A DNA stretch of 64,000 bases from Bacillota bacterium (GTDB lineage: Bacteria > Bacillota > Sulfobacillia > DUMF01). The position numbers and the translations under genes were made by a program. Under the pieces are notes generated by a model. It was not told the DNA's origin. It did no database searches and worked only from the letters and a program-made list of their open reading frames with translations. The DNA lies in contig JBNARI010000002.1 of assembly GCA_049718765.1 (NCBI GenBank), forward strand, positions 10,052 to 74,051. Direction: 5' to 3'. Positions 29,334 through 63,482 of this stretch are shown here, piece by piece; the stretch's first letter is position 1, and the number at the start of each line of letters is the position of its first letter.

Positions 29334-29462
29334 ACTTCACCTCCTTTCCACGAGCAAACTGCAAAGCCGGCACACGTCTCACACCAGCTTCACCTCCTTC
29401 CCAAAATAACGGGACAAAAAAGAAAAGGGCCGCCCGCCGAAGGCGGCCCGTCCGAAAACACG

Positions 29463-42862: not shown

Positions 42863-42925
42863 GACCCCTCCCTCCCAAGAAAAAGTAGCCCCCGGCTGCG
42901 TGGTCGGGGGCTACGAAGTGCGGGC

Positions 42926-43090: not shown

Positions 43091-43105
43091 GCGGTCCACA
43101 CATCC

Positions 43106-43270: not shown

Positions 43271-43296
43271 TACCAATTCCCTCCTTTGGCAGAGTT

Positions 43297-44184: not shown

Positions 44185-44190
44185 TCTTCT

Positions 44191-44484
44191 TTACACCTCC
44201 TGCTGGGCCGCCCAGCCCTTACCGTCCACCCACACCCACACTTCGCGCGAGGTGCAGGGCGGGCACGGCACACGGCTCAAATTCCTCTTCCCCTCCTCCA
44301 GTGCGGGATGCACACCCCCGCGCTTTACCCGCTTCACCTGGATCAGCCGCACGCAACTCCTGCCCACCGCGACAACATCAAACGGCGAATGACTGCCCGC
44401 AGTCCTCGCGACAGTATATCCTTCCGCTTCGAGCAGCCTCACCGCCTTCAGTTCCCCGAGATACCCGCGCCGGTAATTCACCAT
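44191..44484 (-). CDS. Hjc-type (archaeal-type) Holliday junction resolvase-like PD-(D/E)xK nuclease
   Basis: 'YRRGYLGELKAVRLLEAEGYTVARTAGS...FDVVAV...RLIQVK' parallels the Hjc 'YRKG.. [21 protein letters not shown]...DLVA...IEVK' core. Confidence 0.55.
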   Translation of the reverse strand: MVNYRRGYLGELKAVRLLEAEGYTVARTAGSHSPFDVVAVGRSCVRLIQVKRVKRGGVHPALEEGKRNLSRVPCPPCTSREVWVWVDGKGWAAQQEV

Positions 44485-44762
44485 TTCTTCTCAGCCGCCA
44501 GCGCCGCAGCTTCTTTTTGCCCCACAAACCTTGCCACAAGCTCGTGCATGGCGGGCGGATGGCAGACCACGCAGAGCATGGCCCCGTACCGTGACACCCA
44601 CCAGTTCGACCCGCCACACACCCTGCACGTCCCCTGCGGCGTCAGCGACATCGGCAGTACAACGTCCACTTGATCCACGGTGCGGGATTCCAGCGGCTCC
44701 GCCTGGCAGGAAGAAAACCGGTCTGCGGCCCAGGCCTGCCTCACACTGTGCGTGCGCTTCAA
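44478..44762 (-). CDS. Small Cys-rich hypothetical protein (zinc ribbon-like)
   Basis: 'CRVCGGSNWWVSRYGAMLCVVCHPP' has a CxxC...CxxC pattern. Confidence 0.3.
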   Translation of the reverse strand: MKRTHSVRQAWAADRFSSCQAEPLESRTVDQVDVVLPMSLTPQGTCRVCGGSNWWVSRYGAMLCVVCHPPAMHELVARFVGQKEAAALAAEKKW

Positions 44763-44859
44763 TCACAACACCCTCCCCTTGAACCCTCCAACTCTTCTGC
44801 GTCCTCTACTGGTTGAGAAGACTGAGTGGGGGCAGAACCGCCCCCCCCTCGATCAGCCT

Positions 44860-45249
44860 TCAGATCGCCTCGAGCAGGTTGCGGACTGCTTGCTTCAGCT
44901 CGGCGCGCAGCTGCTCCGCGGACACAGGGTCGCCAAGCTCCCCGACACCTCTCGCGGTGTCTGCACCGCCCCGCAGGAACCCACATGCCATCCTTGTGAA
45001 ACGGCGGTTCGCCATTTTGAGCACTTCGATGTTGCCGAGGTAGTACATCCCGCCCTCGGCATACACCCTGTGGCCCAGGTGCCGCAGGCTCTTCGCGAGC
45101 CTCTGCACCTTGATCCTATTCTCAAGAGAGTCTGTCCCAAAGATTTCCTGTGCTATCTGGGCCGTCGGCACCCCTGCAGGATGAGCCTTCTCCAGTATGT
45201 CAAGCATCCGCTCGGCATCCGTGCCCCTTCCGTCCTTCAGCCGTTTCAC
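44860..45249 (-). CDS. Hypothetical protein
   Basis: 129-aa ORF with globular composition. No family recognised. Confidence 0.3.
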   Translation of the reverse strand: MKRLKDGRGTDAERMLDILEKAHPAGVPTAQIAQEIFGTDSLENRIKVQRLAKSLRHLGHRVYAEGGMYYLGNIEVLKMANRRFTRMACGFLRGGADTARGVGELGDPVSAEQLRAELKQAVRNLLEAI

Positions 45250-46766
45250 CTCTCATCACCCCCTTTATCAGGCCCACCTTTTACGAGCTGCAGGAACGGC
45301 TTCTTCGGTTCCAGCAATTCCCACGTCTTTACGATCCAGCTCCCGGCAGCGTCCAGGGCCGCCTTGAAGCTGTTGTAGGTGAGGGCGTCCTCGACAACTT
45401 CTGCCAGCTGTTCGATGTCGTCCCCCGGAGTGCCGCGCACCCGCGCCGCAGCCCTGAGCCGGTCCGCGTGCTTGGTCCCGATCTCCGTGAGCGCCGCCAC
45501 CAGCATGACCGCGCCGTCAGTCGCCTTCTCCAACAGCGCCCGGAACGCAGTGTGCTCTTTGGACCACTGGGGCGGCTTGGGCCGCAACTTCTCCTTCTCC
45601 AGCTCCCTGCTCGCCTGGTCGAGCATCCGCTGGAGCTGGCTCGCCTGCTCCTCCAGCATCTTGACTCTTGCTTCCTTCTGCGCCTTCTCTTCAGCCAGGG
45701 CCAGGAGCCGCGACTGCAGCAGCTCCTTGTCCCTCAGCAGCTCCGCAGCCTGCTTCCTCGCAGCCTCCAGCTCCGCTTCGACAGCGGGATCCGTCCTGTA
45801 CACGACCTTCTCCACCACTTTCTCGAATGGCCTCTGCTCGAGCTCCTTCAGCCTCACCCGGAGCTGTTCCACCTCTTCGGTCCGCTGCCTGAGCTTGGCC
45901 TGGAGGTCGCAAAGCGCTTCCTGGAGCCTCTCCTCATACTCCCGGCCCACCTTTTCCGCGACTTCCGCCTCCAGCGAGGACAGCGCGTCCCGCAGCCCGG
46001 CAAGCTCCCGGCAGAGGGAGTCCCTTTCTTCCTCGAGCCTCGCCAGCTGCTCAGACAGGGCTTCCTTCTCTGCCCGCGCAGACTCGAGCTCCCGCCTCAG
46101 CTCCTGCGCCTGCTTCACAGAAAGCCCGCAGACGCCGGACTCGCCCAACACTTCCAGCAGCCGCCTCTGCTCCTCGGGCGGCAGGAAGGCCAGGGAGTAG
46201 GCTGCGGTCTGGGAGAGCTTCCCCTGGGAGACAAGTTGCTGGAGCTCGGGGATGAGGTCGTTGAGCTTGAGGAGACGCAGAGTAGTCCTGTAGTCCTCCC
46301 CAATGGCCTCAGCTACATCGGCAAGGGTCTTGACCTGACGGACAAAATGTCCTTCAGGTGTGCCAGGTTTTGCTAAGCTACCTTCCCGCACTCCCCAGTA
46401 CCGCTTCAGAAACTCCGCCCTCTTCGCCTTCTTCATCGGGTCCCGGCAGAAGCGCCTCTCCTCGTTGTCCGCGATCAGCAGGTACTCCAGGTACTCCTCG
46501 TCGCCCTCGACGATCACCACGGGCACCTTCTCCAATCCCAGCTCCTTCGCAATTTCCAGCCGCACATGGCCCGCGATCACCCTGTAGTCCGGCGTGACCT
46601 TCAGCGGGTCCCGGATACCTTCAGCCGCAATGCTCCGCTTCAGCGCCTCCCTCTCTTCCGCAGTCGGCGGCGAAAAGTACTCCGTGTTTTTCGGATGCGG
46701 CTTCAGAAGCGAAACGGGCACCTCGTTGTACACAAACCAGCACCTCCCTATCAAGCCCGCTTGCAA
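45246..46766 (-). CDS. ParB/Srx-like nuclease-domain protein with long C-terminal coiled coil
   Basis: N-terminal ParB-like box ('KVTPDYRVIAGHVRLEIAKELGLEKVPVVIV') plus an HTH region, then about 250 aa of heptad-rich Glu/Leu/Arg/Ala coiled coil. Confidence 0.6.
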   Translation of the reverse strand: MQAGLIGRCWFVYNEVPVSLLKPHPKNTEYFSPPTAEEREALKRSIAAEGIRDPLKVTPDYRVIAGHVRLEIAKELGLEKVPVVIVEGDEEYLEYLLIADNEERRFCRDPMKKAKRAEFLKRYWGVREGSLAKPGTPEGHFVRQVKTLADVAEAIGEDYRTTLRLLKLNDLIPELQQLVSQGKLSQTAAYSLAFLPPEEQRRLLEVLGESGVCGLSVKQAQELRRELESARAEKEALSEQLARLEEERDSLCRELAGLRDALSSLEAEVAEKVGREYEERLQEALCDLQAKLRQRTEEVEQLRVRLKELEQRPFEKVVEKVVYRTDPAVEAELEAARKQAAELLRDKELLQSRLLALAEEKAQKEARVKMLEEQASQLQRMLDQASRELEKEKLRPKPPQWSKEHTAFRALLEKATDGAVMLVAALTEIGTKHADRLRAAARVRGTPGDDIEQLAEVVEDALTYNSFKAALDAAGSWIVKTWELLEPKKPFLQLVKGGPDKGGDER

Positions 46767-46878
46767 ACGCGGACAGTTGCTGCAGTAGCCATGCCGCCGC
46801 AGGGGTTCAAAAACGTCATCAGCCCGCAGCGCGACCGCGGGCTGAACCTGCCTGCTTCAACCTGCAAAACTTATCTGC

Positions 46879-47790
46879 CTAGTCGGCCAGAGCCTGTACC
46901 ATCCTCCTCATCACCCACCAGCCCAGGGCGATCGTCACGTAGCACCCGGCCAGCATGGCCCTGCCCGTTGCCGTCTGGGTCATCGGTCTGAAGTAGGCCG
47001 GGTTCTGGGCGTACAGGAAAAGCGTTACCACGATCGGAGCCGCAGACACGACTGCTGCAGACAGCCTCGCCTGGCTCGTGTGCGCGAGCAGTGCCCGCTT
47101 CAACGCCCTCCGTTCGGACACCATCTGCCCGATCAGGTCGTACACTTCCGCAATGTTTCCGCCCGTCCGGGACAGGACCTGGGTCGCCACAATGAACACG
47201 TCCACCTCGGGGCACTCGATGCGCTTCTTCAACTCCAGCACCGCGTCCTCGGGGGGCAGGCCGAACCTCATTGCCTGCACCACGCGGGCAAACTCTTCCG
47301 TTACAGGAGCGGGCGCGTCCGCGGCGGCCCTCTCCAGAGCCTGCCCCAGGCTCGCCCCCGCCCGCAGTGACGAGCTGAGCACGGAAAGCGCAGCGTCGAA
47401 CCGGGCCGCAAAAGCCTCCGCCCTCCGCTTTTTCAACGCGCGCACGTAGTACCGGGGCAGCACCGCACCGGCCACAAGGCCGGCCGCCGCAAACCACACG
47501 CTCCCGGTCACGGCCAGGAGTGCCGTGAACCCGGCCGCGCTCCCCAGCACCGCCACCAGCAGCAGCGTCCGCGCCGTGACCGAAAGCCCTGCCTTCGCTG
47601 CTTCTTCCTCCAGGCGCGAAAGCCAGGGTACTTTCTCTGCCCGGGTACCGGCTCCAAGCCCTGCTTCAGCCACCACGTCTTTCTCGGGCTCACCCCTGAT
47701 CACCTTCTCAACTGCAGGTGGCTGCTTCCTCCTCAGAGAAAGCACAAAAAACAGCACAGAGGCAAACGTGAACAGCGCTGCGCCGCTCAT
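46879..47790 (-). CDS. tadB: TadB-like (GspF-domain) pilus assembly membrane protein
   Basis: Start set at the ATG at 47790 (ATGA overlap with the cpaF stop). The 137 upstream codons of the track ORF are a Gly/Arg read-through. TM-GspF-TM architecture. Confidence 0.6.
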   Translation of the reverse strand: MSGAALFTFASVLFFVLSLRRKQPPAVEKVIRGEPEKDVVAEAGLGAGTRAEKVPWLSRLEEEAAKAGLSVTARTLLLVAVLGSAAGFTALLAVTGSVWFAAAGLVAGAVLPRYYVRALKKRRAEAFAARFDAALSVLSSSLRAGASLGQALERAAADAPAPVTEEFARVVQAMRFGLPPEDAVLELKKRIECPEVDVFIVATQVLSRTGGNIAEVYDLIGQMVSERRALKRALLAHTSQARLSAAVVSAAPIVVTLFLYAQNPAYFRPMTQTATGRAMLAGCYVTIALGWWVMRRMVQALAD

Positions 47791-49112
47791 CCGCTGCCAC
47801 CGCCCCTCTCTTTTGCCAGCACTCTTGGCACCGGCACCCCGTACCACTCGAACTTCCACATGAAGCGCGGCTCGTGCACGGACCACACCAGCCTTCCTTC
47901 CCTTACGTCGTACCTGGCAAGGTCCCTCACCACCACGCTCTCCCCATCCGTTTCCACTGGCTCCGAGACCGCCACCACCTTCCTGGACCCGTCCCTGAAC
48001 CTGGCCGCCTGCACGAAAAGCTCCACCGACGCCACAATCTGCTGCAGCACCGCCCTCCGGGGGAGGTTCCCTCCCGCCTGCAGCACCATCACCTCCAGCC
48101 GGCTTATCGCGTCCTGGGGCGAGTTGGCATGGATCGTGGTCAGCGACCCCTCGTGGCCGGTGTTCATCGCTTGCAGCATGTCCAGCGCTTCGCCGCCCCT
48201 GCACTCGCCGACCACAATCCGGTCCGGCCTCATCCGCAGCGCATTTCTCACCAGGTCCCGCATGGCTATTTCGCCCCTGCCCTCTATGTTGGGGGGTCTG
48301 GTCTCGAGCCTCACCACGTGCTCCTGCTGGAGCTGCAGCTCCACCGTGTCCTCTATCGTGACGACCCTCTCCCCCGCCGGTATGAACGACGACAGCACGT
48401 TCAGCAGCGTGGTCTTGCCGGAACCCGTACCTCCCAGCACGACCACGTTCACCTTCGCCTCCACGCAGCGCTGCAGGAACTCCAGAGTTGCCTCGTCAAG
48501 AGTGCCAAGCCGCAGCAGGTCCCCGGCGGTGAGCCTCTTACCGAACTTCCGTATCGTGATGCACGCCCCGTCAACGGCCACAGGCGGTACTGCGGCGTTC
48601 ACCCTGCTCCCGTCCGGGAGCCTGGCATCCACCATCGGGCTCGACTGGTCTATCCGCCGCCCCACAGGTCCCACTATCTTCTGGATCACCGTGCGCACGT
48701 GTTCCTCGTCCCGGAACACAATGTTTTCAGCCCTGTGGATCCTGCCGTTCTTCTCGTAGTACACCCTGTCGTACCGGTTCACCATCACTTCTGTGACCTC
48801 GGGATCGTCGATCAGGGGCTGTATGGGACCGTAGCCCAGCACGTCCTGAAGGATCCTTTCCACCACAGCCGCCCTCGCGTGGCGCTGGAGATCTGCCCCC
48901 TCCCGGTCCGCTATCGCGGCCACCAGCCTGCGAAGCTTCTCGTCGTCCTGCAGCACGCCCGAGTCCAGCCTGGCGTACAGCGCCCGCCTCACCCGCTCCT
49001 CGACTTCGGCCGCGCGCTCGCGCCCCACCGCAGCGGCAGCCTCCGCCCGCGCCCTCGGCGCGCTGGTAGCCTCCTTCTCTTCCATCCGCCTGCGAATCAG
49101 TGACACACCCAA
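47787..49112 (-). CDS. cpaF: CpaF/TadA pilus assembly ATPase
   Basis: Walker A 'VVLGGTGSGKTTLLNVL', Asp box 'VVTIEDTVELQL', His box 'GHEGSLTTIHAN'. Confidence 0.85.
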   Translation of the reverse strand: MGVSLIRRRMEEKEATSAPRARAEAAAAVGRERAAEVEERVRRALYARLDSGVLQDDEKLRRLVAAIADREGADLQRHARAAVVERILQDVLGYGPIQPLIDDPEVTEVMVNRYDRVYYEKNGRIHRAENIVFRDEEHVRTVIQKIVGPVGRRIDQSSPMVDARLPDGSRVNAAVPPVAVDGACITIRKFGKRLTAGDLLRLGTLDEATLEFLQRCVEAKVNVVVLGGTGSGKTTLLNVLSSFIPAGERVVTIEDTVELQLQQEHVVRLETRPPNIEGRGEIAMRDLVRNALRMRPDRIVVGECRGGEALDMLQAMNTGHEGSLTTIHANSPQDAISRLEVMVLQAGGNLPRRAVLQQIVASVELFVQAARFRDGSRKVVAVSEPVETDGESVVVRDLARYDVREGRLVWSVHEPRFMWKFEWYGVPVPRVLAKERGGGSG

Positions 49113-50327
49113 CTACAGACCCCTCCTCTTCCACCGGAAAAGCCTTGAGATCAGCCCGCCCCTGTGAGACGCGATCACGTCCCCGAGAGCAGGTGTCACC
49201 CTTGCAGCAAGCCCAAGCACGGCATTCGTGAACGGGCAGCTCCTTTCGAGCACCGGGAGCCGGCCCTGGTTCTGCAGTGCCGGCACGCTCTCGTCCTCAG
49301 GTATCTGCGCGACCAGCTCCCACGGCAGCCACTCCTTAACCTGCGCCACCGAGAACGGCGGCTTCCTTGGGACCCGGTTCAGCACCACCCGGATCTTCCT
49401 CTCGTCGGTGTGCGTGAGGGATATGTCCCTGGGCGCCCTGTACACGTCCCTCAGCGTCTGCACGTCCATCGTCGCCACCACAAGCACCGAGGTGGCGGAC
49501 TCCAGCCCCACCACTGTGGCGTCCTCGAAGTCGGGGCCGCAGTCCACCACCACCACGTCGGCGTTGCGTCTCATGTACTCGAGCACATCGGTCGCAAGCG
49601 CCTCGTCCAGCAAATCTTTGTTTATGGCCCTCCTTATGCCCGGCACCACGTGGATCGTGCCTTTCTTGCCCACGGGGTATGCTGCGACCCTGGACTCGAA
49701 GCGATCGTCCTTGGCCTCCGCCCAGGCCTCCACGGAAAGCGGAGTGCTGATCTGCAGCAGTGCGGTCACCCTGGCGTGGGGGTCGAAGTCCACAACCACC
49801 ACACGCAGATCGGGCATGTACTTTGCGTACACTGCAGCCAGGTTGCACACGAGAGTCGTCTTGCCCACGCCGCCCTTGGGGCTGTAAACGGTTATCACCT
49901 GCTGGCGCACCACCCTGCTGCGCGGCCCCGGGGGCTCCTCCTCACCGGGACCACTCCATGGCGGCTGTAGCTGCTCGTCGCCGCCAAGTTCATCGAGCAC
50001 TTCTTCCAGTTCCAGAGCGTCGAGGGGCCTGCGCACTACGCCCTTGAGCCCCTTCTTGGCGGCCCTCCTGTAAAGGTCAATCCCCGCGTCCCCTGATGCA
50101 AGCAGCACGGGCACCCCACCCAGCACGTGCACGGCCTCAGCACCCATGTCAAGGCTGTCCACCAGTACAGCGTCCGCACCACCGACCCTGCCCCTCAGCT
50201 GCGCGGGGCTGTCCGCCACCGCCAGGACACGCACACCCCGGCCCAGACTCTCTACTTCCCTGACCAGGTCCTCTGCGCCAATAACGCACAACCTCAACAC
50301 CTTACCGCCCTCCTCCCGGCTGGACAA
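49113..50327 (-). CDS. cpaE: CpaE/TadZ-like protein (receiver-like N-domain plus ParA/MinD ATPase)
   Basis: Deviant Walker A 'VYSPKGGVGKTTLVCNLA' and 'VVVVDCGPDF'. Confidence 0.75.
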   Translation of the reverse strand: MSSREEGGKVLRLCVIGAEDLVREVESLGRGVRVLAVADSPAQLRGRVGGADAVLVDSLDMGAEAVHVLGGVPVLLASGDAGIDLYRRAAKKGLKGVVRRPLDALELEEVLDELGGDEQLQPPWSGPGEEEPPGPRSRVVRQQVITVYSPKGGVGKTTLVCNLAAVYAKYMPDLRVVVVDFDPHARVTALLQISTPLSVEAWAEAKDDRFESRVAAYPVGKKGTIHVVPGIRRAINKDLLDEALATDVLEYMRRNADVVVVDCGPDFEDATVVGLESATSVLVVATMDVQTLRDVYRAPRDISLTHTDERKIRVVLNRVPRKPPFSVAQVKEWLPWELVAQIPEDESVPALQNQGRLPVLERSCPFTNAVLGLAARVTPALGDVIASHRGGLISRLFRWKRRGL

Positions 50328-51030
50328 AGCCGTACCTCTCCAGCCACTGCCGCCCGGTCACGCCCTGCGTCTGAGCCGCAGACTCGTCCGTGTTCAGCGG
50401 GTTCAGCGCGAACCGGATGGAACCCGACGTCAGCGCGAACGCTATGTCCTCTATCTGCTGCGGCGTCAGGGCAACTACCAGTACGCTCCCTTTGCCCAAC
50501 CTGAGCTCAGTGTTCTGCTTCACGTCCAGCACCAGCACGTTCCTCGCGACCACCTTCCCTACACCCATGCCGGTGCCCCCCGCTTCCACCTTCACGGATG
50601 CCACGATGTCCACCCTGTCACCTGGCTTGATGTCACCACCCACCCCGGTCTCGGCGTCGTACGACAGCGAAAACGCCCTCAGATCCGGCCTACCCAGAGC
50701 AGTCAACCTCGCAGTCATGACCGACTTGCCAGGCGTCACATCCGCCACACGGGCCATGCGGACCACTTCGCCTGCATACACCCTGTCCCGCAGGTACTGA
50801 CCCACGATGTCTTCCACCTTCCGCACCGCGTCCTGCGGCACGGAAATCACCGGGACTTCCTGCACCTTAACATCGTCTCTCGTCACCAGCTGGTACGCTT
50901 CGAGGTCCCGCACAGCAACCACCACCGGCTCCGTCTCGTTCACGCGCTTCAAAAACTGCACCACCAGCAGCGCAGCACACAGCGCCATCACGACCGCCAG
51001 GATAAGAAAAACCGTGCCCTGCTTCTTCAA
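50302..51030 (-). CDS. cpaB: CpaB/RcpC-like Flp pilus assembly protein
   Basis: N-terminal TM anchor, then SAF-like and beta domains ('VVAVRDLEAYQLVTRDDV', 'VLVLDV'). Confidence 0.65.
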   Translation of the reverse strand: MKKQGTVFLILAVVMALCAALLVVQFLKRVNETEPVVVAVRDLEAYQLVTRDDVKVQEVPVISVPQDAVRKVEDIVGQYLRDRVYAGEVVRMARVADVTPGKSVMTARLTALGRPDLRAFSLSYDAETGVGGDIKPGDRVDIVASVKVEAGGTGMGVGKVVARNVLVLDVKQNTELRLGKGSVLVVALTPQQIEDIAFALTSGSIRFALNPLNTDESAAQTQGVTGRQWLERYGFVQPGGGR

Positions 51031-51092
51031 CTATCTCGTCCCCCCCTCACGCAGATCAGAAAATCATCAGGGGCGGCACTCAATCGCCCCCC

Positions 51093-51506
51093 TCAGTCAA
51101 GATCCCCCGGTCCGTTGTGCACCTGTACACTGTAGACCTTCCAGCCGTCCTCAAACTTCATCAGGTCGAGCACGCACACGTGCTGACCGATGCACTTTGA
51201 CGGTGTTGCCTGCTCCTCCCAGGTCACCGCGCACACCACCGACCCCCTGGTGCCGTCCCTGTTGGTGCGCAGCATTTTCAGCCTGAGTTCATGCACCTCC
51301 CACTTCACGCCCCTGAGCACCGGCAGCTTCCTGCTGAGGTCGGCATGCGCGTCTCCAGATGTCAGGTTAAGCGCCCTCTCAAAGTCACCGGAATAGTACG
51401 CCTGCACGTACTCCCTTGCCACGTCGAGCATTTCGGTGGCCGCCTTCCCGGGACTGCACCCGGAAACCAGCACGCAAGCAACCACCGCCAGGCATATGAG
51501 CCGCAC
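51093..51506 (-). CDS. Lipoprotein (SnoaL/NTF2-like, DUF4878-like)
   Basis: Lipobox 'LVSGCS' after a GTG start at 51506. Paralogous to the next gene. Confidence 0.45.
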   Translation of the reverse strand: MRLICLAVVACVLVSGCSPGKAATEMLDVAREYVQAYYSGDFERALNLTSGDAHADLSRKLPVLRGVKWEVHELRLKMLRTNRDGTRGSVVCAVTWEEQATPSKCIGQHVCVLDLMKFEDGWKVYSVQVHNGPGDLD

Positions 51507-51552
51507 CTGCCTCTCACCCCTCTTTCCCCCTCCCTCTGAAAGGTCGACTGCT

Positions 51553-51984
51553 TCAGGACTTCTCGACCCTCCGCGCCGTGGCAAACGAATATATCTTCCA
51601 CTGCCCGGCAACCCTGGCGAACTTCAGTACAGCCACCATGTCCACAGTCGTGGTCCCCGCCCCGGGCACCGTCTGCTCAAACACGTAAGCTGCCACCACG
51701 TCCCCGCGTGTCCGGTCGCGGGAGACCCAGTCGCACTTCAGCTCCAGCCCGGAGACCTTATTCTGCACATTCATCGCCCTGAGAGCGGGCACCGCAGCCC
51801 TCATATCCGCAAGGGCCTGCCCCGTCAGAAAAGAGCACGCCGTGTCAAAGTCGCGGCTGTAGAAGGCGTTGAGGAACCGAGTCCCCAGATCCACCAGGTC
51901 CCGCTCGGTCGTGTAGCTCCTTGAGCACCCCGCAAGCGTCATTACGGTCATGAGGGCTAGAAGGAGCGCACCCTGCTTCCTCAT
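51553..51984 (-). CDS. Lipoprotein (SnoaL/NTF2-like, DUF4878-like)
   Basis: 'MRKQGALLLALMTVMTLAGCS' lipobox. 'FLNAFYSRDFDTACSFLTG' parallels 'YVQAYYSGDFERALNLTSG' in the paralogue. ATGA overlap with the upstream gene. Confidence 0.5.
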   Translation of the reverse strand: MRKQGALLLALMTVMTLAGCSRSYTTERDLVDLGTRFLNAFYSRDFDTACSFLTGQALADMRAAVPALRAMNVQNKVSGLELKCDWVSRDRTRGDVVAAYVFEQTVPGAGTTTVDMVAVLKFARVAGQWKIYSFATARRVEKS

Positions 51985-53279
51985 GTGCCGGCTGCGCGCC
52001 GCAGGCCGGCCCGGAGCCGGTCGACAAGTGCCCCTACGGCCTCCCGCCGCACCGACTCCCACGGGGACTCGAGCTCCGGCACCAAGCAGTCGGGTCTGCG
52101 GCCCAGGACTTCGGTTACCTCTTGCCTCGCCCGGTTTAACACCAAGAACTCGCACCCTACCTTCTTCACCTCCCTCTTCACGACCGCCAGGTGGGCGGGG
52201 TCCGGGTCCACTACGAGCACCCTGAGCCACGCCGCTGCCAGCAGTGCTGCAGCCCACTCATCTTCCGCCACACACGGCATGTCGCACACAAACACGTCGG
52301 CATTCACCTTCGGAGAATTCAGAAACCGTTCCAGCACCTGCCACTCGACCTCCAGCCGGCCGAGCGCCGGGTCCCTGCTGAACACGGTGACCCCTTCAGC
52401 CTGCAGCCCGAAGGGCCCGTCGGTGACCACCAGAGCAGGAGAAAGCACCTTCCCGAGCGTGTCCTCCCCTTCGGGCAGCCGCAGGTACGTGTGCAGCGCG
52501 TGCTTGTGCGTGTCCAAATCCACCAGCGCCACCCTGACCCCGCGCGCCGCAAGCGCGGCCGACAGGAAAGCGCTCACCAGCGTCTTCCCGCATGGAGCCG
52601 GGCTCCACACGGCCACAACGGGCATCCGGAGCCTCATCGGCCCAGCGGAACCGGCCTGCGGCCCGGTGGGCGAGACCTGTTGTCCGAGCGGGAAAGGATT
52701 GCCGGCGGCCTCTGTTTTACGCTTCGCTGCGGCACTTACGGCAGGCGCCTCCCGTGGCCCAGCCGGGGTCGCCGGTTCCACAGCCCCACGGACCCCTCCC
52801 TTCCCGGCCAGCGCACCGCCCAGCCGGTGGAACAGCTCCAGAAAGTCCCGCTTCGGCCTGGGCTTCGCAGCCGCGCAGCACACCTTCAGCGCCTCCGCGA
52901 ACGTCCTTGGCCTCTCGATGCAAGCATCTATGTCCTCCACCCGCACTGCGCGGTCCTCTCCGTAAAACAGGATGTCGTATACCCCCATAGCGATGAGGTC
53001 CTTGATAAGCTGCGACCCCCGGGGCATGTCGCCGGCAAGGAACACCACCCGCAGCCCGGCAAGCCTTGCCTCGAACACCACGTCGGCCATGTCCTTCGTG
53101 CCCTCGAGGTACGCGGATAAAAGCAGCACATCCGCCTCGGTGCGCTTCACTGCGTCGAGGACGGCCTCCCGGTAAAACACCCTTGCGCAGACCTCCACAC
53201 CGCCCCCCTCTGCCATCTCCTCGTAGTACCTGTCCAGCTCATCAACACCCGTGGCAAGGATCAGCCTACTGCGCGGCAC
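51981..53279 (-). CDS. CpaE/ParA-like protein with degenerate Walker A (possibly non-catalytic)
   Basis: Receiver-like N-domain. The P-loop position reads 'VAVWSPAPCGKTLVSAF' and lacks the KGG of deviant Walker A. 'VALVDLD' is conserved. Confidence 0.5.
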   Translation of the reverse strand: MPRSRLILATGVDELDRYYEEMAEGGGVEVCARVFYREAVLDAVKRTEADVLLLSAYLEGTKDMADVVFEARLAGLRVVFLAGDMPRGSQLIKDLIAMGVYDILFYGEDRAVRVEDIDACIERPRTFAEALKVCCAAAKPRPKRDFLELFHRLGGALAGKGGVRGAVEPATPAGPREAPAVSAAAKRKTEAAGNPFPLGQQVSPTGPQAGSAGPMRLRMPVVAVWSPAPCGKTLVSAFLSAALAARGVRVALVDLDTHKHALHTYLRLPEGEDTLGKVLSPALVVTDGPFGLQAEGVTVFSRDPALGRLEVEWQVLERFLNSPKVNADVFVCDMPCVAEDEWAAALLAAAWLRVLVVDPDPAHLAVVKREVKKVGCEFLVLNRARQEVTEVLGRRPDCLVPELESPWESVRREAVGALVDRLRAGLRRAAGT

Positions 53280-53661: not shown

Positions 53662-54731
53662 CCTCCAGTGGTGCGCGGGTCAATGCACACCCCGTTCTTC
53701 CGCACCTCGAAGTGCAGGTGCGGCCCGGTTGAAACTCCTGTCGAACCTACCAGCGCTATGACCTGACCCTCTGCGACACGCACCCCCTCAGCCACAAGGA
53801 CTGCCGAGCAGTGGCCGTACAGCGTCTCAAGCCCGCCCCCGTGGTCGATGATCACGCACAGCCCGTAGCCGCCGTACTGCCCCGCAAAGCGAACCACCCC
53901 GCCGCGCAGCACCCGCACCGCAGCCCCCGGCGGTGCCCCGATGTCCACACCGGGGTGGAACTCCAGAGCGCCGGTGACGGGATGCACGCGCCACCCGTAG
54001 CCCGACGTCACCTCGCCCTCCACGGGCCAGTCCCCACTGTAGCTCAGCCGCTCCAGCGGCCCCACCAGCAGCACCGAAAGATTGGGCCTGCCGGACTCTA
54101 TGCTCCTGCCCAGCTCAGCTATCAGCTGGGCCGAAGCGTCGTCCGGCTCCTGCCCCGTCAGCGCGCGCACAGCGGCCTTCAGGCGCGAGTAGTCGGGCGT
54201 CCACTGGCAGCCCTCTCTCACGGGCACCACGTGCGTCCCCGACACTGCACACGAGTACCTGTAGGAGTACACCCCGTCGTACGCACGGGCGCACAACAGG
54301 ACTGTCACAGAAACATGGCGCTTGTTGCCGGTTTCCGGATCCTCCACCCAGACCCCCACGGAGCCGTACTCAAACTCAGGCCTGAGCAGGAATGCAGCAC
54401 TTTCCAGGTCTGTTTTCCCGCGGCTGCCGGTGAGCACGTCCAGCGCCAGCAGCAGCCCCGCAGTCACCTGGTGGGCCGCTTCTGCGCCGTCCGCAGACCT
54501 CACAGGCACCGCAAGCCGCGAAGCCAGCTCGCGGTACTCGCTCCACTGCGGCTCCGCCTGCGCCCCCACCGGCAGCCCCACGAACACCGACGCCAGACAC
54601 AGCACCGCTACGACCAGGCACAAAATAAGCAGGCCGCTCACTGCCAGCAGCCTGCGCCCGGAGGACAGGAAGCACAGCACCGCTTCCCTAGCGACCGCTA
54701 CCGCCGGATTTCTTCGCCGCACCGGTTTCAC
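53652..54731 (-). CDS. M23 family peptidase (cell-wall hydrolase of the transfer apparatus)
   Basis: 'HPGVDIGAPPGAAVRV' (HxxxD) and 'GSTGVSTGPHLHFEVRKNG' (HxH) LytM-type motifs. N-terminal TM anchor. Confidence 0.75.
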   Translation of the reverse strand: MKPVRRRNPAVAVAREAVLCFLSSGRRLLAVSGLLILCLVVAVLCLASVFVGLPVGAQAEPQWSEYRELASRLAVPVRSADGAEAAHQVTAGLLLALDVLTGSRGKTDLESAAFLLRPEFEYGSVGVWVEDPETGNKRHVSVTVLLCARAYDGVYSYRYSCAVSGTHVVPVREGCQWTPDYSRLKAAVRALTGQEPDDASAQLIAELGRSIESGRPNLSVLLVGPLERLSYSGDWPVEGEVTSGYGWRVHPVTGALEFHPGVDIGAPPGAAVRVLRGGVVRFAGQYGGYGLCVIIDHGGGLETLYGHCSAVLVAEGVRVAEGQVIALVGSTGVSTGPHLHFEVRKNGVCIDPRTTGGWR

Positions 54732-56601
54732 CGGCCTTTCCGTACATAACCTGCCGCCACGGTCTCGCCTCGTCCGCTGTCAACCGGCGCCTTGCAGGTG
54801 GGCGGACCATCCGCGCGCCAGCGTCATACAGCGCCTGCCCTGCCGCTCCGATTTCCCGGCCCACCGGGCCCCCTGCCAGTCCTACCAGGTGACCGCCGAT
54901 CCTCATCCCAATTCCGGTCCCGGCGAGCAGCACACCTCCGGCTGCACCCGCCACCCTGGCGGCCACAGCCGCGACACTCTGCCGCGTCTCACTCTTTTCT
55001 CCTCTTCTCTCTTCCGGTTCGGGCTCCGGCTCACCGCCGCCTGAGGCCGTGTTTGGGCTGCGCTCAGGTGCCCCGAAACCGAAGTCGAGGCAGTACGGCC
55101 CTCCGCCTTCGCCGGTTTCGAATACAGCTCCTATACCAGCCGAACCCCTTACTGCATTCCACGTTATCCCTACGGGCCCCTCATACGTTTCAGGCTCACC
55201 CTCGGGCCACATGTCCGGTTCGTCCACCACCCGAAATGGGAGCCCTCTTCCGCTGGGACGGTACGCCCCGGGCTCGTCAACCGCAAGCACTGGCATGTCG
55301 CCCTGGATGCGTGGTCCGGAAACCCGGGCTGCAGTCCCGGTGGCTCCCGCCGGCGCGGCACTTGCCGCCTGAACAGCCATCAGGGGTACCGCTGCACCGC
55401 CCCCGCCTCCATCGTTGGGGCCCTTGAACGGCGACAGCCCGGCAATCGCTACACCCGCAGCTCCGGAGCGCGCAAGCCCGCCGACCGCGCCGGCCATTAT
55501 GCTCCCCAGCGCAACAAGCGATGCCATGCCGCCCACGGCCCCTCCGGCCATGCCTTCCTCGTGCATCCCCAGCCAGTCCAAAAAGCCTATGAGCATTCTC
55601 CGCAGGAACGAAGACACCGGGATCACAAGCGTGAACCCCAGGAGTTTTGCCCAGGCCGTCCCCATGATCCCGCTTTCGCACACCGGGACACCCACACCAA
55701 ATGCCAGAACCCGTACCAGCCCGGTGGCCGAAGCAGCGCTCTCGCGCAGGCCAAGCATCGTGAGGAAAAATCCGTAGGTCAGCGCATGCGAAGCGGTCAT
55801 CATGCCGTTTGTCAGCAGCTCCGACAGCAGCAACATTGCCGTCCGGCGTGTGCGCCTGGACACCCACGACCAGGCCACAACTGGCGCCAGCACCAGCAGC
55901 ACGCCGAGCACGAACTTCCTGATGAGGTACAGCACGTTCATGTAGATCTTCAGACCCACGTCTGCAATCCTCACCAGGCTGTCAAGCAGCGCGCTGCCGG
56001 TCGCCCGCACTCCCCACTCGTGCGTGATGGGCACCGACATCTCCACCAGCCTCGCCTTCCCGAAGCTCACGACGGCCAGGTTGCAGTCCAGCACCAGCCT
56101 GAGAATGACCGGTGTCGCAAAAGCAAAGAGTGCCGCAAAGCCGGTGTCCCACAGCACCTCCTGCACTGTTGCGCGCTTCGAAGGGCTCAGGATCCAACCG
56201 TACGACTTCAGCAGCACCACCGTCTGGATCACAATCACAGATGTCGCAAACGCCAGCACGGCCTGGTACCAGGGCTTGACCAGCCCGTACCACTCCGCAG
56301 CTGTGAAGGCATCTGCCATCGGCGAGCCGTCGCCCGTGTTGAACACAAGCTCTTCCACCGGCTTCATCCCGGCCAGATCCGCAACAAGGTCCAGGGCCGA
56401 CGCGATGGCATTGAACGGGGTTGCCAGGATCTGGTCCAGTATGGAGTACGACCCCGTCAGTGCAGGCAATCCCCCCGGCCCTGTGGTACTCGCACCGTTC
56501 TGCGTCGGCAGACTCAGCTCGTCCAGCGTCTGCGCACGGGCAGGCCCCGGCACCGCAGCGACAAGGAGCATCACCACCAGAACACACACCCACCTGCGCA
56601 A
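54688..56601 (-). CDS. VirB6/TrbL-like polytopic T4SS membrane protein with Gly-rich tail
   Basis: 637 aa, signal peptide, about 6-8 TM helices in the central region, and a long low-complexity Gly/Ala tail. Its position between the hydrolase and VirB4 matches Gram-positive T4SS modules. Confidence 0.5.
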   Translation of the reverse strand: MRRWVCVLVVMLLVAAVPGPARAQTLDELSLPTQNGASTTGPGGLPALTGSYSILDQILATPFNAIASALDLVADLAGMKPVEELVFNTGDGSPMADAFTAAEWYGLVKPWYQAVLAFATSVIVIQTVVLLKSYGWILSPSKRATVQEVLWDTGFAALFAFATPVILRLVLDCNLAVVSFGKARLVEMSVPITHEWGVRATGSALLDSLVRIADVGLKIYMNVLYLIRKFVLGVLLVLAPVVAWSWVSRRTRRTAMLLLSELLTNGMMTASHALTYGFFLTMLGLRESAASATGLVRVLAFGVGVPVCESGIMGTAWAKLLGFTLVIPVSSFLRRMLIGFLDWLGMHEEGMAGGAVGGMASLVALGSIMAGAVGGLARSGAAGVAIAGLSPFKGPNDGGGGGAAVPLMAVQAASAAPAGATGTAARVSGPRIQGDMPVLAVDEPGAYRPSGRGLPFRVVDEPDMWPEGEPETYEGPVGITWNAVRGSAGIGAVFETGEGGGPYCLDFGFGAPERSPNTASGGGEPEPEPEERRGEKSETRQSVAAVAARVAGAAGGVLLAGTGIGMRIGGHLVGLAGGPVGREIGAAGQALYDAGARMVRPPARRRLTADEARPWRQVMYGKAGETGAAKKSGGSGR

Positions 56602-56629: not shown

Positions 56630-57946
56630 TCACGACAGGCCCTTAGGCAGCCAGCCCTCCTTGACGACTTCCTTCGCCTTTACGAGCAGGTCCTCCATGG
56701 TGATCCCGTCCACACCCGTCCTGGCTCCCCTCCGCACGGCCCTCTCCGCCGCACCCTTGCAGATGCCTACTATGACGGCAGGCGAGCAGCCGTCGGTGAT
56801 CCGTGCAAGAAAGTCCAGGTCGATCTCGCCCAGAACGGGCCTCTCCGCGAGCAGCTTCGAAAAAAGAGCTTTGCGCCCCTCGAAGTCCGGCAGACCCACC
56901 TGCACGTGCCTGTCGAACCGCCCCGGTCTCAGAAGCGCTTCGTCCAGCACGTCTATCCTGTTGGTCGCACCGATCACGAACACGTCGCCCCTTGCCGAAA
57001 CGCCGTCAAGCTCCACCAGCAGCTGGTTCAGCAGCACATCGCTCGCCCGGTTCATGTGCGCCCCGTCGCGTCGCCTGCCTATGGCGTCGAGCTCGTCTAT
57101 GAACACTATGGCAGGCTTCCCACACCTGCGGGCTGCATGCCTTGCCAGGGCAAACACCTGGCTCAGCTTCTTCTCCGACGCGCCCACCCACTTCTCCAGC
57201 ACCACACTCGGCCTCACTTCAATCAGCGGGCAGCCGAAGTACTCCGCTGTCGCCCTCGCAAGCGACGTTTTGCCTGTCCCAGGTGGGCCGTAAAGCAGGA
57301 CGCCACGCGCAGGGTCGATCTTGTAGAGTTTCGCCCGCTCCGGGTCCTTAAGCCAGACTTCCAGTGCCCCAAGCATTTCCTCCACTGCGCGCTCGACCCC
57401 CACTAGGCCGTCAAACGCTTGCGGGTTCGGCCCCTTCACGACCACCTCTATACCGTCCACCGAATCACCTCCCGTTCCGATGGGACTGGCCCACGCCTTC
57501 TGGGGCAGCTGCCTTCTCACAGCCTGCAGCCTCCTCACCTCACCAAACAGACGCATGTTCACGAAGTACCCGAGCACCAGCCCCAGCAGCTGCACCAGCT
57601 CTCGAGCGTTCCTGGAGGCCCCAGGCACGAAGAACCCGGCGAGAATCGCGTGCCCGGCTGCCCCTTTCGTCACGAAGCAGCACAGCACAGTGGCTACAAT
57701 GGTCGCATAAGATACCTCGTGAGGCAGCAGCCCCAGCCCCAGAAACAGGCTCCTCCACGTGTACGGCAGGGGACCGCCCCGGTACCAGCCGTAGCACGCA
57801 TACCCAACCGCCACCACCGAAGCCGCAAACAGTAGAGTGCAGAGCGCTCCCACAAGGCTCATCCGCACCCCTGTCCTCGCACCGTTCATCCGCATCCCTC
57901 CTCTTCTGGAGCCGCCACCCTGTGCAAACACAGTCCCGCCCTGCAC
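56630..57946 (-). CDS. Membrane-anchored AAA+ ATPase (classic FtsH/Cdc48 clade)
   Basis: N-terminal TM helices. Walker A 'LLYGPPGTGKTSLA', Walker B 'IVFIDELDAIG', SRH 'ATNRIDVLDEALLRPGRFDRHVQVGLPD'. Confidence 0.8.
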   Translation of the reverse strand: MQGGTVFAQGGGSRRGGMRMNGARTGVRMSLVGALCTLLFAASVVAVGYACYGWYRGGPLPYTWRSLFLGLGLLPHEVSYATIVATVLCCFVTKGAAGHAILAGFFVPGASRNARELVQLLGLVLGYFVNMRLFGEVRRLQAVRRQLPQKAWASPIGTGGDSVDGIEVVVKGPNPQAFDGLVGVERAVEEMLGALEVWLKDPERAKLYKIDPARGVLLYGPPGTGKTSLARATAEYFGCPLIEVRPSVVLEKWVGASEKKLSQVFALARHAARRCGKPAIVFIDELDAIGRRRDGAHMNRASDVLLNQLLVELDGVSARGDVFVIGATNRIDVLDEALLRPGRFDRHVQVGLPDFEGRKALFSKLLAERPVLGEIDLDFLARITDGCSPAVIVGICKGAAERAVRRGARTGVDGITMEDLLVKAKEVVKEGWLPKGLS

Positions 57947-60965: not shown

Positions 60966-61314
60966 AGCCCTTCAGCCAGCCGGCCAGCAGGTGGCTCGAG
61001 AACACGATCAGCGCGCCAATCGTAGTATGCACCAGCCCCTCCATAGCCTCGGCGCGCTTACGCGGGTCAGGCGATGCAGCGAGCTTGTACCCGTTTATGA
61101 TGTACCCCGCTATCACGATGATCGCTCCCAGCGAACGCAGCAGGTTCAGAATAGCAACTGCGAAGTTCACCAGGAAGTTAACGCTTGTCCCCGTGTTCAG
61201 CCCGTCGTCTCCGGTCGACGGATTGGGCACAGGTACACTCCCACTTGCCGCCTCAGCAACCGCCGGAAACAGTGCCACCAGCAGGGCCAAGATTGCACAG
61301 AACGCCCTCATCAT
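60946..61314 (-). CDS. TrbC/VirB2-like pilin-type protein
   Basis: Start reassigned to ATGATG at 61314 with RBS GGAGGGAGGGTG. Signal peptide 'MMRAFCAILALLVALFPAVAEA', then two hydrophobic helices ('LVNFAVAILNLL', 'GAIIVIAGYIINGY'). Confidence 0.5.
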   Translation of the reverse strand: MMRAFCAILALLVALFPAVAEAASGSVPVPNPSTGDDGLNTGTSVNFLVNFAVAILNLLRSLGAIIVIAGYIINGYKLAASPDPRKRAEAMEGLVHTTIGALIVFSSHLLAGWLKGFAQGVQ

Positions 61315-61420
61315 TTCACCCTCCCTCCACGAAAAGATGATCAGCTCACTCCATCCAGCAAGGCTCAGGAGAATCGGAACGCGCAAACTGTCTGCGGGAT
61401 TGTCCGGTGCGATACAAAAA

Positions 61421-62371
61421 CTATCCGTCTTCGAAAACCTGCCACGGGGGATCTGCAACAACGGGGCGCTTGCTCAAAAGCGACTCCCTCAGATTCTTGA
61501 TAATCGCGGACACTTCAGACATTCCATCGACGTTTGCGGAACCGTCATCCGGATAGCATTCCCCAGGACCGCAGGAGCAAGAGGACGCACACACAGAGCG
61601 GCCGCAGCCTTGGGAAAGCTTATCCGGTTCCGAGTTCCGAACGTTAACTGGTGGACATTCGGTTTTACAATTCTTTGTTGTAGTCTCTGTAATAATCTCT
61701 GATGTAATCTCTGATATTACACGTCCATTTTTTAACGCTCGAGCGTCCATTTTGGAACATCGAGCGTCCAAATTGGACGTTCGAACGTCCAAAATGGAAC
61801 ATCGAACGTCCACCGTGGACGTTCGGGCGTGAGCTGGGCTTTCTTTACCAGCAGCTTGATCCTGAAAACCTCCTGCTTCTGCTAGTTCGGGTACAAGCGA
61901 GTACCCGTCAAGGCAGTATCCCAGCTTAGTCAGTTCTTCCTGTATGCGCGCCAGGTTAACCCGGTACTGCATCGTCTTGCTCCACCGGTACCGCGGGTCA
62001 GTTCGCTCGCTCACGTAGCCCCTGTCGATGAGCTCCTGCAGGTGGCGCCTGATCGTCTGCCGCGACAGTCCCAGCATGGTCTCCTCATTTAGTTCCTCGG
62101 CCGATTTGTAAATCCAGCCGTGAGTCTCCTGCACCACACACTGGGGAACCTCTCCCCCGTGCTTGAGCTCTTCTTCCACCCGCTGCCTCTCTTCGCGGAT
62201 GTACGCATCGATGTCGGCAGCGCGCTCGGTCCAGTAAATTAGCTGGTTGAGCAACACCGCTTTTACAAAGTCGCCGGTAAGGGCGACAAGCTCTTCTTTG
62301 ATCACAGCCCTCTTAAGTTTGCGCGGATTGTCCACTGACTGCTGCACCCCCTGCCCCGTGCCCCGAGGCAC
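61421..62371 (-). CDS. RepA_N-family replication initiator (Firmicute plasmid/ICE type) with internal iterons
   Basis: N-terminal 'LLNQLIYWTERA...THGWIYKSAEELNEETMLGLSRQTIRRHLQELIDRGYVSER' fits the RepA_N pattern (NGW.Y.s.eeL.e.lg.S..Ti.r....L...GlI...R). The ORF reads through a 21-bp repeat array. The C-terminal extent is uncertain. Confidence 0.55.
   Translation of the reverse strand: MPRGTGQGVQQSVDNPRKLKRAVIKEELVALTGDFVKAVLLNQLIYWTERAADIDAYIREERQRVEEELKHGGEVPQCVVQETHGWIYKSAEELNEETMLGLSRQTIRRHLQELIDRGYVSERTDPRYRWSKTMQYRVNLARIQEELTKLGYCLDGYSLVPELAEAGGFQDQAAGKESPAHARTSTVDVRCSILDVRTSNLDARCSKMDARALKNGRVISEITSEIITETTTKNCKTECPPVNVRNSEPDKLSQGCGRSVCASSCSCGPGECYPDDGSANVDGMSEVSAIIKNLRESLLSKRPVVADPPWQVFEDG
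61719..61824. repeat. Iteron array: five tandem 21-bp units, each an internal palindrome (GAACGTCCA...TGGACGTTC)
   Basis: Units at 61741, 61762, 61783 and 61804 (GAGCGTCCATTTTGGAACATC / GAGCGTCCAAATTGGACGTTC / GAACGTCCAAAATGGAACATC / GAACGTCCACCGTGGACGTTC), plus a degenerate unit at 61719. Preceded by TAATCTCTGAT direct repeats (61693-61715) in a locally AT-rich patch. Confidence 0.7.
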
Positions 62372-62380
62372 GGCGAAACC

Positions 62381-63367
62381 CTATCTGATCAGTCGCACGC
62401 GCCGTCTGCCTTCCGACGGCAAGCCCTGCCCTCCTTCGGAAGGATAGCCGTCGCCCCGATTGGCGGGTACTGCACTTGCCGTCGCTGTGGCTTCCACGAC
62501 AGGCCGCCACACCCTGGTCGCGCCACCTCCGCCGCTCCTGCCGCCGCCGAAACCCTGCGGCCCTCTGCGCTGGGACACCGGACTTGGGTCGAGTCTGATC
62601 CCAGCGTCGTCCGCTATCAGGCTGGCCGCATGCAGCAGCCCCCGGTACAGCCCTTCGCCGTACTCTCCACGGGCAAAGTACGGCAACATCCCTTCGAGGC
62701 ACTGCCCGGCCCTGGTGTCCGTTATGACTGACTCCAGCCCGTACCCGACCTCCATGCGCACCCGCCCTTCCCTGAGCGAGACGACAACCAGCAGGCCGCG
62801 GTCTTCTCCCTTCCGGCCTATGCCCCACTTCTCGTACAGCCTGGCACTGTACATGGCTCCGCAGACGTCGTGAGTGTCTTCCAGCACCGCAACTGCCACG
62901 CTGACCCCTGTCCGCCTCAGTAGCACATCTGCCACACCGTTCAACCTTGCGGTGTCAGACGAGCTCAGCACGCCTGCGTAGTCGTTGACGTTCGCGTACG
63001 GCTTTGGGTAGAAAGGCTGCGAGTATGCCAGTCCGGGCGCAGCAGCTGCCGCGCCCCTGTATAGCGCTGCGGCACGGGCTGCGGGAAGCGAAGCCTGCTC
63101 TGCATAGCTGGCCTCGTACCCGTCCTCGTATCCGGCCGGACGGACCGGCCGCCTTTCTGCGAGAGCATTCGCCAGCTCCGCCAGGTAGTAGTCGTACTGC
63201 TGCTGAAAAGTCTCCAGGTCAGCTATTGTAGCCCCGAAAAACGAGTATTCCGACCCTCTGCCGAACAGTGCCGCGTCAAGCCACATTTCGTTGCTGCCCG
63301 CACGCGCTGGGCCCGGCAACCCCGTGAGCAGCACCAGAAGAACCCCAAGGGATACCTTTTTCCACAC
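62381..63367 (-). CDS. TPM-domain (TLP18.3/Psb32/MOLO-1-like) secreted protein with Gly-rich tail
   Basis: Signal peptide 'MWKKVSLGVLLVLLTGLPGPARA'. TPM core 'YAGVLSSSDTARLNGVADVLLRRTGVSVAVAVLED...GLLVVVSLREGRVRMEVGYGLE'. Confidence 0.55.
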   Translation of the reverse strand: MWKKVSLGVLLVLLTGLPGPARAGSNEMWLDAALFGRGSEYSFFGATIADLETFQQQYDYYLAELANALAERRPVRPAGYEDGYEASYAEQASLPAARAAALYRGAAAAAPGLAYSQPFYPKPYANVNDYAGVLSSSDTARLNGVADVLLRRTGVSVAVAVLEDTHDVCGAMYSARLYEKWGIGRKGEDRGLLVVVSLREGRVRMEVGYGLESVITDTRAGQCLEGMLPYFARGEYGEGLYRGLLHAASLIADDAGIRLDPSPVSQRRGPQGFGGGRSGGGGATRVWRPVVEATATASAVPANRGDGYPSEGGQGLPSEGRRRVRLIR

Positions 63368-63482
63368 TTATCCCCACCTCCCCGCGCCGCGGTTGAAAAG
63401 GCTACGGACAAAAAGAAAGGGCTCCCACCCCCTTTCCAAGCACCAGACACGTGAGAGTGGTCGCCACAAACACGCCGTGCGC

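Follow-up and report, generated by a model that had tools for sequence, protein, structure and literature searches.

The present analysis concerns a short repeat array and the gene that contains it, near the right end of a 64,000-nt stretch of contig JBNARI010000002.1 (assembly GCA_049718765.1) from a Bacillota bacterium; the whole stretch is referred to as the window, and all coordinates are counted from its first letter. Between 25 and 64 kb the window encodes a conjugative type IV secretion system (T4SS), with a pilin, PrgI, a VirB4-like protein and a coupling protein, as well as a Tad-type pilus set (CpaB, CpaE-like, CpaF, TadB/C and TadE). Directly upstream of the T4SS genes for pilin, PrgI and VirB4, and overlapping the pilin gene by 41 nt, lies the candidate replication initiator gene of this element. 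An identical NCBI protein, from a metagenome-assembled genome of a Bacillota bacterium, is annotated as 'winged helix-turn-helix domain-containing protein'. Read along the coding strand, the gene consists of a sequence for an N-terminal domain (N-domain), a short spacer, an array of iterons, a group of 12-mers and a sequence for a Cys-rich tail. The features are listed in Table 1, and the iterons are considered here as a candidate replication origin (oriV).

The array was detected by Tandem Repeats Finder as period-21 repeats at 61722-61812 (4.3 copies, 80% matches) and 61739-61812, and as a period-42 repeat at 61735-61825. Direct reading gives 18-bp units with 3-nt spacers that begin at 61710, 61732, 61753, 61774, 61795 and 61816, the inverted half-sites, CGTCCA and TGGACG, pointing towards a short A-tract between them. 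A perfect 18-bp palindrome, TGGACGTTCGAACGTCCA, makes up the unit at 61774-61791, and the 11-nt arms at 61803-61813 and 61815-61825 form a fully complementary pair. The preliminary description had reported five 21-bp units here, each containing the inverted repeat; the array and its period are as it described, but the full inverted repeat is found only in the two places just named, and since the other units keep the CGTCCA arm opposite a degenerate partner (TGGAACA or TTAACGC), the claim was overstated in this respect. The 11-mer TCGARCGTCCA, with up to one mismatch, occurs six times within 88 bp (61739-61826) and only four times elsewhere in the window. Shuffled sequences gave an expectation of 2.3 copies for the whole window, with none of 100 shuffles reaching 10, so the copies outside the array match the level of chance. 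The array itself is real and far beyond chance.

Three 12-nt direct repeats spanning 61680-61715 adjoin the iterons (Tandem Repeats Finder, period 12 at 61684-61715). Two are exact copies of TAATCTCTGAT, at 61693-61703 and 61705-61715, and the third is degenerate; in the protein they are translated as SEITSEIITETT. Direct repeats had been noted previously as preceding the array, and they do exist, but because the open reading frame (ORF) is on the minus strand they follow the array on the coding strand. The locally AT-rich patch that had been described was also recovered, GC being 0.38-0.42 at 61650-61799 against about 0.62 nearby. In the nearest-neighbour free-energy scan, the segment that covers the 12-mers ranked first for instability at window sizes of 40, 60 and 100 bp, with z = 4.3-4.7, and the GC content at third codon positions (GC3) falls from 0.75 in the N-domain to 0.19 across the 12-mer block. 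The AT-rich patch also includes a sigma-70-like promoter match (TTAACT-16-TACAAT, 61644-61671, plus strand), antisense to the initiator gene and pointing into the iterons; it could be a chance occurrence (0.4 expected), or it could specify an antisense or origin-activating transcript. A search of 61300-62500 with Rfam found no RNA families.

The array lies, as had been proposed, inside the ORF, which is intact across the repeats. It occupies codons ~183-217 of 316, in frame, and since a period of 21 nt is a whole number of codons it can sit within the reading frame, giving the heptads TVDVRCS, ILDVRTS, NLDARCS and KMDARAL. An AlphaFold2 model, built on 79 homologues, shows a 35-residue helix followed by a winged helix-turn-helix (HTH) at residues 30-150, with a predicted local distance difference test score (pLDDT) above 90. 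The score is below 50 for residues 167-280, so the repeats would be translated into a predicted disordered linker.

The assignment of the N-terminus to the RepA_N family was not borne out, as PF06970 matched neither the window protein (E<=0.01) nor any of the 79 family members (E<=0.1), and a comparison of the family profile with PDB sequences gave no match and thus no RepA_N chain. Pfam returned only sub-threshold HTH matches for the window protein (MarR_2, HTH_24, RP-C and HTH_36), with no match to a Rep_3 domain or to the DnaB_2/DnaD-like C-terminal domain (PF07261), and NCBIfam returned no match. Comparison with the PHROG families gave phrog_22444 (unknown function, 3e-29), a DnaD-like loader (3e-12) and 'replication initiation O-like' families (5e-11 and 6e-8). 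Foldseek searches found only generic winged helices in the PDB, and weak matches in BFVD that include a putative O protein (E 3e-3) and replication proteins.

Homologues are numerous, with 526 found at E<=1e-3. Related loci were counted in species-representative genomes (101, mostly Bacillota) and in IMG/VR viral contigs (183), and homologues are carried by 33 PLSDB plasmids; a tblastn search of the INPHARED phages found no match although IMG/VR holds so many. The carriers are Bacillota phages, phage-plasmids and conjugative plasmids. No curated Pfam or NCBIfam model covers the family, and its members are recorded under names such as 'winged helix-turn-helix domain-containing protein', 'HTH transcriptional regulator', 'MarR-family regulator' and 'hypothetical protein'. 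In the alignment they share a protein plan, consisting of an N-domain that ends in GYxLxGY, a variable heptad run, the conserved peptide NGRAIPEITTEITTE and a variable C-terminal domain (C-domain), the last being DnaA_N, DnaB_2/DnaD-like, Phg_2220_C or unrecognised. At the DNA level a corresponding layout recurs: the N-domain, then arrays of 21, 42 or 63 bp period with lineage-specific half-sites, the conserved block GCAATACCAGAGATTACTACAGAG, and the variable C-domain.

The best tandem repeat has a period of 21, 42 or 63 and lies just after the N-domain in 57 of 137 distinct genes. When genes were clustered at 70% identity, such an array was found directly after the N-domain in 40 of 59 clusters, and in 36 of 37 clusters it comes before the conserved 10-mers of the block, the median distance being 9 nt. 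The units of the homologues follow the 18-bp palindromic pattern TG-NNN-(T)TCGA(A)-NNN-CA, with an A-tract between them, and the frames in which they are read differ among genes (examples are TGAGGAATCGAAACCTCA, TGAAGGATCGAAGCTTCA, TGCAAATTCGGATTTGCA and TGAGCAATGCATTGCTCA). The CAAAATG and TCGA cores are constant across these iterons. The half-sites vary by lineage and track the sequence of the recognition helix, a link that is only suggestive because the sequences sharing both are close relatives.

The block that follows the iterons is strongly conserved as well. Among 53 cluster representatives, aligned on the first copy, the consensus directly after the last iteron is aGCAATACCAGAGATTACTACAGAGAyTAC, and the window gene retains 15 of 17 consensus positions. 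The 10-mer CAGAGATTAC, with up to one mismatch, occurs in 244 sense-strand copies beyond the N-domain part of the homologue genes, at a spacing of 12-15 nt and in all three reading frames, as against one antisense copy and none inside the N-domains. Most genes read the block as AIPEIT, but five clusters read the same stretch of 17 or more nucleotides as QYQRL and another five as RDY, representing frames 0, 1 and 2. Where it is read as EIT, the codons are nearly fixed: GAG in 50 of 54 cases versus 30% across the N-domains that these genes encode (p ~1e-20), ATT in 53 of 54 versus 42% (p ~4e-18), and ACT in 41 of 54 versus 25%. The block is strand-specific and, although the iterons before it differ by lineage, near-invariant in dozens of divergent phages, phage-plasmids and conjugative plasmids of the Bacillota, with GC contents from ~36% to 62%. 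A literature search on the conserved motif or peptide found nothing relevant.

The use of three frames together with fixed synonymous sites indicates selection on the DNA of the iterons and the block rather than on the peptide. This bears on the simplest explanation of the repeats, that they merely encode a repetitive, low-complexity protein linker and have no function as DNA. Although in-frame heptads and predicted disorder are what such a linker would look like, palindromy has no meaning at the level of the peptide, and the same DNA motifs appear in different frames among homologues with synonymous positions fixed, so that this explanation is strongly disfavoured and very improbable. The amino-acid sequence of the linker appears, from these comparisons, to be secondary to its DNA.

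What the homologues are fused to, and what lies next to them, points to replication. C-terminal fusions to DnaA_N (8e-17) and to DnaB_2/DnaD-like domains (1e-17, 3 of 79 members) were found, and among the products encoded immediately after homologues are loader ATPases of the DnaC/DnaI type (two loci), SSB, ParA and topoisomerase III (TopB). On pPlas3, a complete, circular, conjugative plasmid of Paenibacillus peoriae (36.2 kb), the homologue is the sole candidate initiator and is situated between T4SS genes and parM; it is likewise the sole candidate on a complete, circular, 46.8-kb Bacillus phage-plasmid. Both genes have iterons in the linker, and MOB-suite assigned no replicon type to either of these replicons. 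The gene sets of pPlas3 and the window are comparable; in the window the initiator gene is upstream of the T4SS, with the ParM-like gene ~22 kb away. A homologue on Alicyclobacillus plasmid pAACI01 (91.7 kb, typed MPF_T; 2956-5197) is downstream of a divergent gene for an S24 (LexA/CI-like) peptidase, which is a phage-like immunity and replication layout on a plasmid.

These observations also allow the array to be weighed as an operator or roadblock, at which a MarR/ArsR-like regulator binds inside its own gene and throttles read-through into the downstream T4SS operon. The window protein taken alone would suit such a role, given that Pfam and Foldseek show only generic similarity to winged-helix regulators, that no replication-type C-domain is present, and that the gene directly precedes, and overlaps into, the T4SS genes. 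However, phages and phage-plasmids that have no T4SS behind the gene show the same layout, with the array inside it. Homologues also carry fused DnaA_N or DnaD-like domains and have genes for helicase loaders or SSB after them, and a simple roadblock would have no use for an invariant AT-rich block of 12-mers. We therefore consider it unlikely that the array is an operator, though operator and origin functions could coexist.

The best reading of the locus is an iteron origin with an unwinding element inside the initiator gene. The array is probably the vegetative origin (oriV) from which the conjugative element replicates, placed where the initiator gene encodes the linker, and the interpretation as an origin is well supported by comparison, resting on the recurrence of the layout, conservation at the DNA level, replication-type C-domains and neighbours, and the position of homologues as sole candidate initiator in two replicons. 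In this sense the central claim of the preliminary description, an iteron-type origin within the coding sequence of its own initiator, is strongly supported by the relatives of the gene, while the RepA_N label does not hold at sequence level.

Several points weigh against an origin. Arms are degenerate in three of the five inverted repeats, no DnaA boxes were found at the array, and neither Pfam nor the AlphaFold2 model revealed a helicase- or primase-recruiting C-domain in the window protein. The fold matches RepA_N and DnaD N-terminal domains no better than generic winged-helix repressors. GC-skew minima in two complete replicons with homologues lie 1.3 kb and 5.4 kb away, which is only roughly at the gene, and the measure is confounded by gene orientation. 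Lastly, the window ends 1.6 kb beyond the gene and its left 17 kb are ordinary metabolic genes, so the element could be integrated. Some of these features would be expected if the origin were decayed or non-functional, the array being a relic of a plasmid or phage ancestor in an integrated, integrative and conjugative element (ICE) or in a degenerate replicon: the degenerate iteron arms, the C-terminal tail with no recognisable domain and low model confidence, and the chromosome-like metabolic genes on the same contig. Yet the ORF is uninterrupted across the array, the 80-81% match level of the array is typical of homologues, and the consensus positions and AT bias of the block have been kept (GC3 0.19) in a genome of 62% GC, which argues for ongoing selection. 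Decay is thus an improbable explanation, about on a par with an operator.

As for the tail, residues 235-275 are Cys-rich (CKTEC...CGRSVCASSCSCGPGEC) in a low-confidence part of the model. This segment may be metal-binding, replacing the DnaA_N or DnaD-like domains of homologues.

In its organization the locus may be compared with several known replicons. The lambda origin lies inside the O gene, between the parts encoding the DNA-binding N-domain and the C-domain, and consists of several dyad-symmetric iterons of ~18-19 bp, each presumably bound by a dimer, with an AT-rich unwinding region downstream of them relative to transcription. The locus resembles the O genes of lambda, lambdoid and Stx phages in that its putative origin is intragenic and has dyad-symmetric iterons with an AT-rich region after them, and the PHROG matches to O-like families (5e-11 to 6e-8) agree with this. 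In contrast, the Pfam model of the O protein (Phage_rep_O) matched neither the window protein nor the 79 family members, and the present family has Bacillota hosts and C-domains that are DnaA_N, DnaD-like or unrecognised, not P-binding.

Also among the closest systems are the RepA_N replicons, such as pSK41, pTZ2162, pAD1 and pLS32, and the structure-assigned RepA of the Vibrio cholerae PLE. In these the N-domain, with a winged-helix fold like that of the DnaD N-terminal domain, binds Rep boxes inside rep, the linker is dispensable and encoded by the origin, the C-domain is host-specific and contacts the primase or helicase machinery of the host, and inverted repeats converge on an A-tract. 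The iterons of the window are likewise central in the coding sequence (a position shared by 40 of the 59 clusters) and form inverted repeats, CGTCCA-AAA/AAT/TTT-TGGACG, at a 21-bp period; the predicted disorder of the linker and the variable C-domain of the family also fit the linker and host-contacting C-domain of RepA_N proteins. The differences are that the N-domain of the present family is longer, ~140 aa with the 35-residue helix, and that 25-30 nt of strongly conserved 12-mers come after its iterons. A literature search that did not cover the main review (Weaver 2009) turned up no account of a comparable block in RepA_N replicons.

The pPR9-type chimeric staphylococcal initiator, from a conjugative plasmid for which autonomous replication has been shown, has an HTH_36 N-domain of phage origin and an origin in the gene. 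The likeness lies in a winged-helix/HTH N-domain that is not RepA_N (49 of the 79 present-family members give weak HTH_36 matches) and in the order of elements, the pPR9 gene having at 23954-24142 of the plasmid record inverted-repeat iterons, CCGTTTACTGAAAATCCGGATACGG, followed by ~4 AT-rich 15-nt direct repeats, TAATAATACTAATAG, as in the window. The repeat sequences themselves are unlike those of the window, and profile comparison detected no homology to the pPR9 initiator (hhalign probability 2.8%). Plasmids of the Rep_3 group (RK2 TrfA, F RepE, pPS10 RepA) also have iterons of ~20 bp adjoining a DNA unwinding element (DUE) of 13-mer direct repeats, but their iterons are direct, non-palindromic and intergenic, with DnaA boxes, whereas those of the window are palindromic and intragenic. 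The pBMB165 replicon was rejected as a comparison since it belongs to the unrelated pAMbeta1 family. Overall, the kind of system is a known one; it appears to work like RepA_N and lambda O replicons while being by sequence a member of neither, and what was not found in the databases and literature searched is a model of the family and its conserved block.

From these comparisons a mechanism can be suggested. Dimers of the winged-helix N-domain would bind the 18-bp near-palindromes; with a 21-bp period, one dimer after another would line up along the same face of the helix, and the A/T spacers, being in phase, would favour bending, judging by the sequence and by knowledge of RepA_N systems. The resulting nucleoprotein complex would then melt the adjacent AT-rich block of three 12-nt repeats, in keeping with its computed instability, and the C-terminal part of the initiator, or host factors of the DnaD/DnaB/DnaI type, would load the replicative helicase at the block, as suggested by the C-domains of homologues and by their neighbours. 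The block is accordingly proposed to be a DNA unwinding or loading element, a reading modelled on the 13-mer DUE repeats of Rep_3 plasmids. Rep proteins of iteron plasmids are described in PMC4081077 as binding these 13-mers strand-specifically, as single-stranded DNA (ssDNA), and it may be suggested by analogy, with moderate confidence, that the 12-mers are bound in the same way. A more far-reaching version, which we regard as speculative and rather unlikely, is that the block is a dedicated, sequence-specific unwinding or helicase-loading element, read as ssDNA by a conserved face of the initiator family or by a host factor (DnaD, DnaB, DnaI), and so represents a 'loading code' shared by a large family that has no curated model and is distinct from RepA_N.

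Table 1. Positions of the features of the candidate initiator gene and of other features of the element within the window.
Feature	Position	Strand	Description
Candidate initiator gene	61421..62371	minus	From ORF list; 316 aa, GTG start
Conserved N-terminal domain, aa 17-157	61901..62323	minus	Long helix and winged helix-turn-helix; presumed iteron-binding
Iteron array	61721..61826	no strand	5-6 units, 21-bp period; 18-bp (near-)palindrome TGGAcgTTCGArCGTCCA and 3-nt A/T spacer
Family-conserved DNA block	61680..61720	minus	Coding strand GTAATATCAGAGATTACATCAGAGATTATTACAGAGACTAC; holds three 12-nt direct repeats of CAGAGAYTAY
Least stable duplex segment of the 64-kb window	61662..61722	no strand	Nearest-neighbour free-energy scan
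C-terminal tail, aa ~232-316	61421..61679	minus	Cys-rich, mostly low-confidence; one short helix, aa 284-299
TPM-domain protein gene	62381-63367	minus	Ends 9 nt before the initiator start codon
Terminator-like hairpin	63414-63437	minus	Just upstream of the TPM gene
Second winged-helix protein	35796-36878	minus	360 aa, HTH_27; beside T4SS coupling protein, 34015-35874
Actin-like ParM/Alp	38444-39481	minus	ALP_N and MreB-like_C; weak NCBIfam ParM and PRTRC_D matches
Tad/Flp-type pilus set	41925-53279	minus	TadE 41925-42413; TadB/C-like 43297-44184, 46879-48204; CpaF 47787-49112; CpaE/ParA-like 49113-50327, 51981-53279; CpaB 50302-51030
ParB-like protein	45246-46766	minus	506 aa; SMC-like coiled-coil stretch
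Classic AAA (Cdc48/FtsH-type) ATPase	56630-57946	minus	With AAA_lid_3; adjoins VirB4-like ATPase

The remainder of the element provides some further context. Its ParM/Alp and ParB-like genes are plasmid-type segregation genes and fit plasmid-type maintenance; the element may be a plasmid or an ICE, and these genes favour a plasmid-type lifestyle. Since centromeres are often arrays of short, phased repeats, and the element encodes these two proteins, the iterons might also be taken for a partition centromere (parC/parS-like) of the ParM-like or ParB-like system. The two genes are, however, 15-23 kb away, and across the family the array is tied to the winged-helix gene, also in phages without these partition genes, which makes a centromere the least probable of the explanations considered. 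No tRNA genes were found in the window, and no integrase or relaxase was recognised among the window ORFs scanned with Pfam or NCBIfam. In view of the missing relaxase, DNA processing may be carried out by the second winged-helix protein, encoded beside the coupling protein, or by the product of one of the large ORFs that gave no family match (28111-29529, 40492-41898 and 54688-56601).

Because the TPM gene ends so close to the start of the initiator gene and is itself preceded by a hairpin, the TPM, rep, pilin and T4SS genes may form one operon. At the start of the TPM gene, ~1 kb upstream of the initiator gene, there are two adjacent DnaA-box-like 9-mers, TTTTCCACA and TTATCCCCA, each with one mismatch and 10 bp apart (63358-63376, plus strand); the total number of such 9-mers in the window is at the level of chance, but the adjacency of this pair is curious. 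The Tad/Flp set sits in the middle of a conjugative T4SS cluster of Gram-positive type, a combination that looks unusual, and it may serve mating-pair formation. The transfer region is flanked by several SLH-domain proteins and a 956-aa fibronectin-type-III protein (14951-16876 and 25149-32948, minus strand), which may serve the element at the cell surface or in adhesion.

If the interpretation is correct, it would identify where, and by which initiator, a large conjugative element with both a T4SS and a Tad pilus starts its replication in an uncultured, high-GC organism of the Bacillota. It would also mean that a widespread family of winged-helix proteins are replication initiators with built-in origins, and recognition of the family would improve the replicon typing of Gram-positive plasmids, phage-plasmids and ICEs. 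The 12-mer block would then be a concrete and testable cis-element for the study of DNA melting and helicase recruitment by RepA_N-like initiators.

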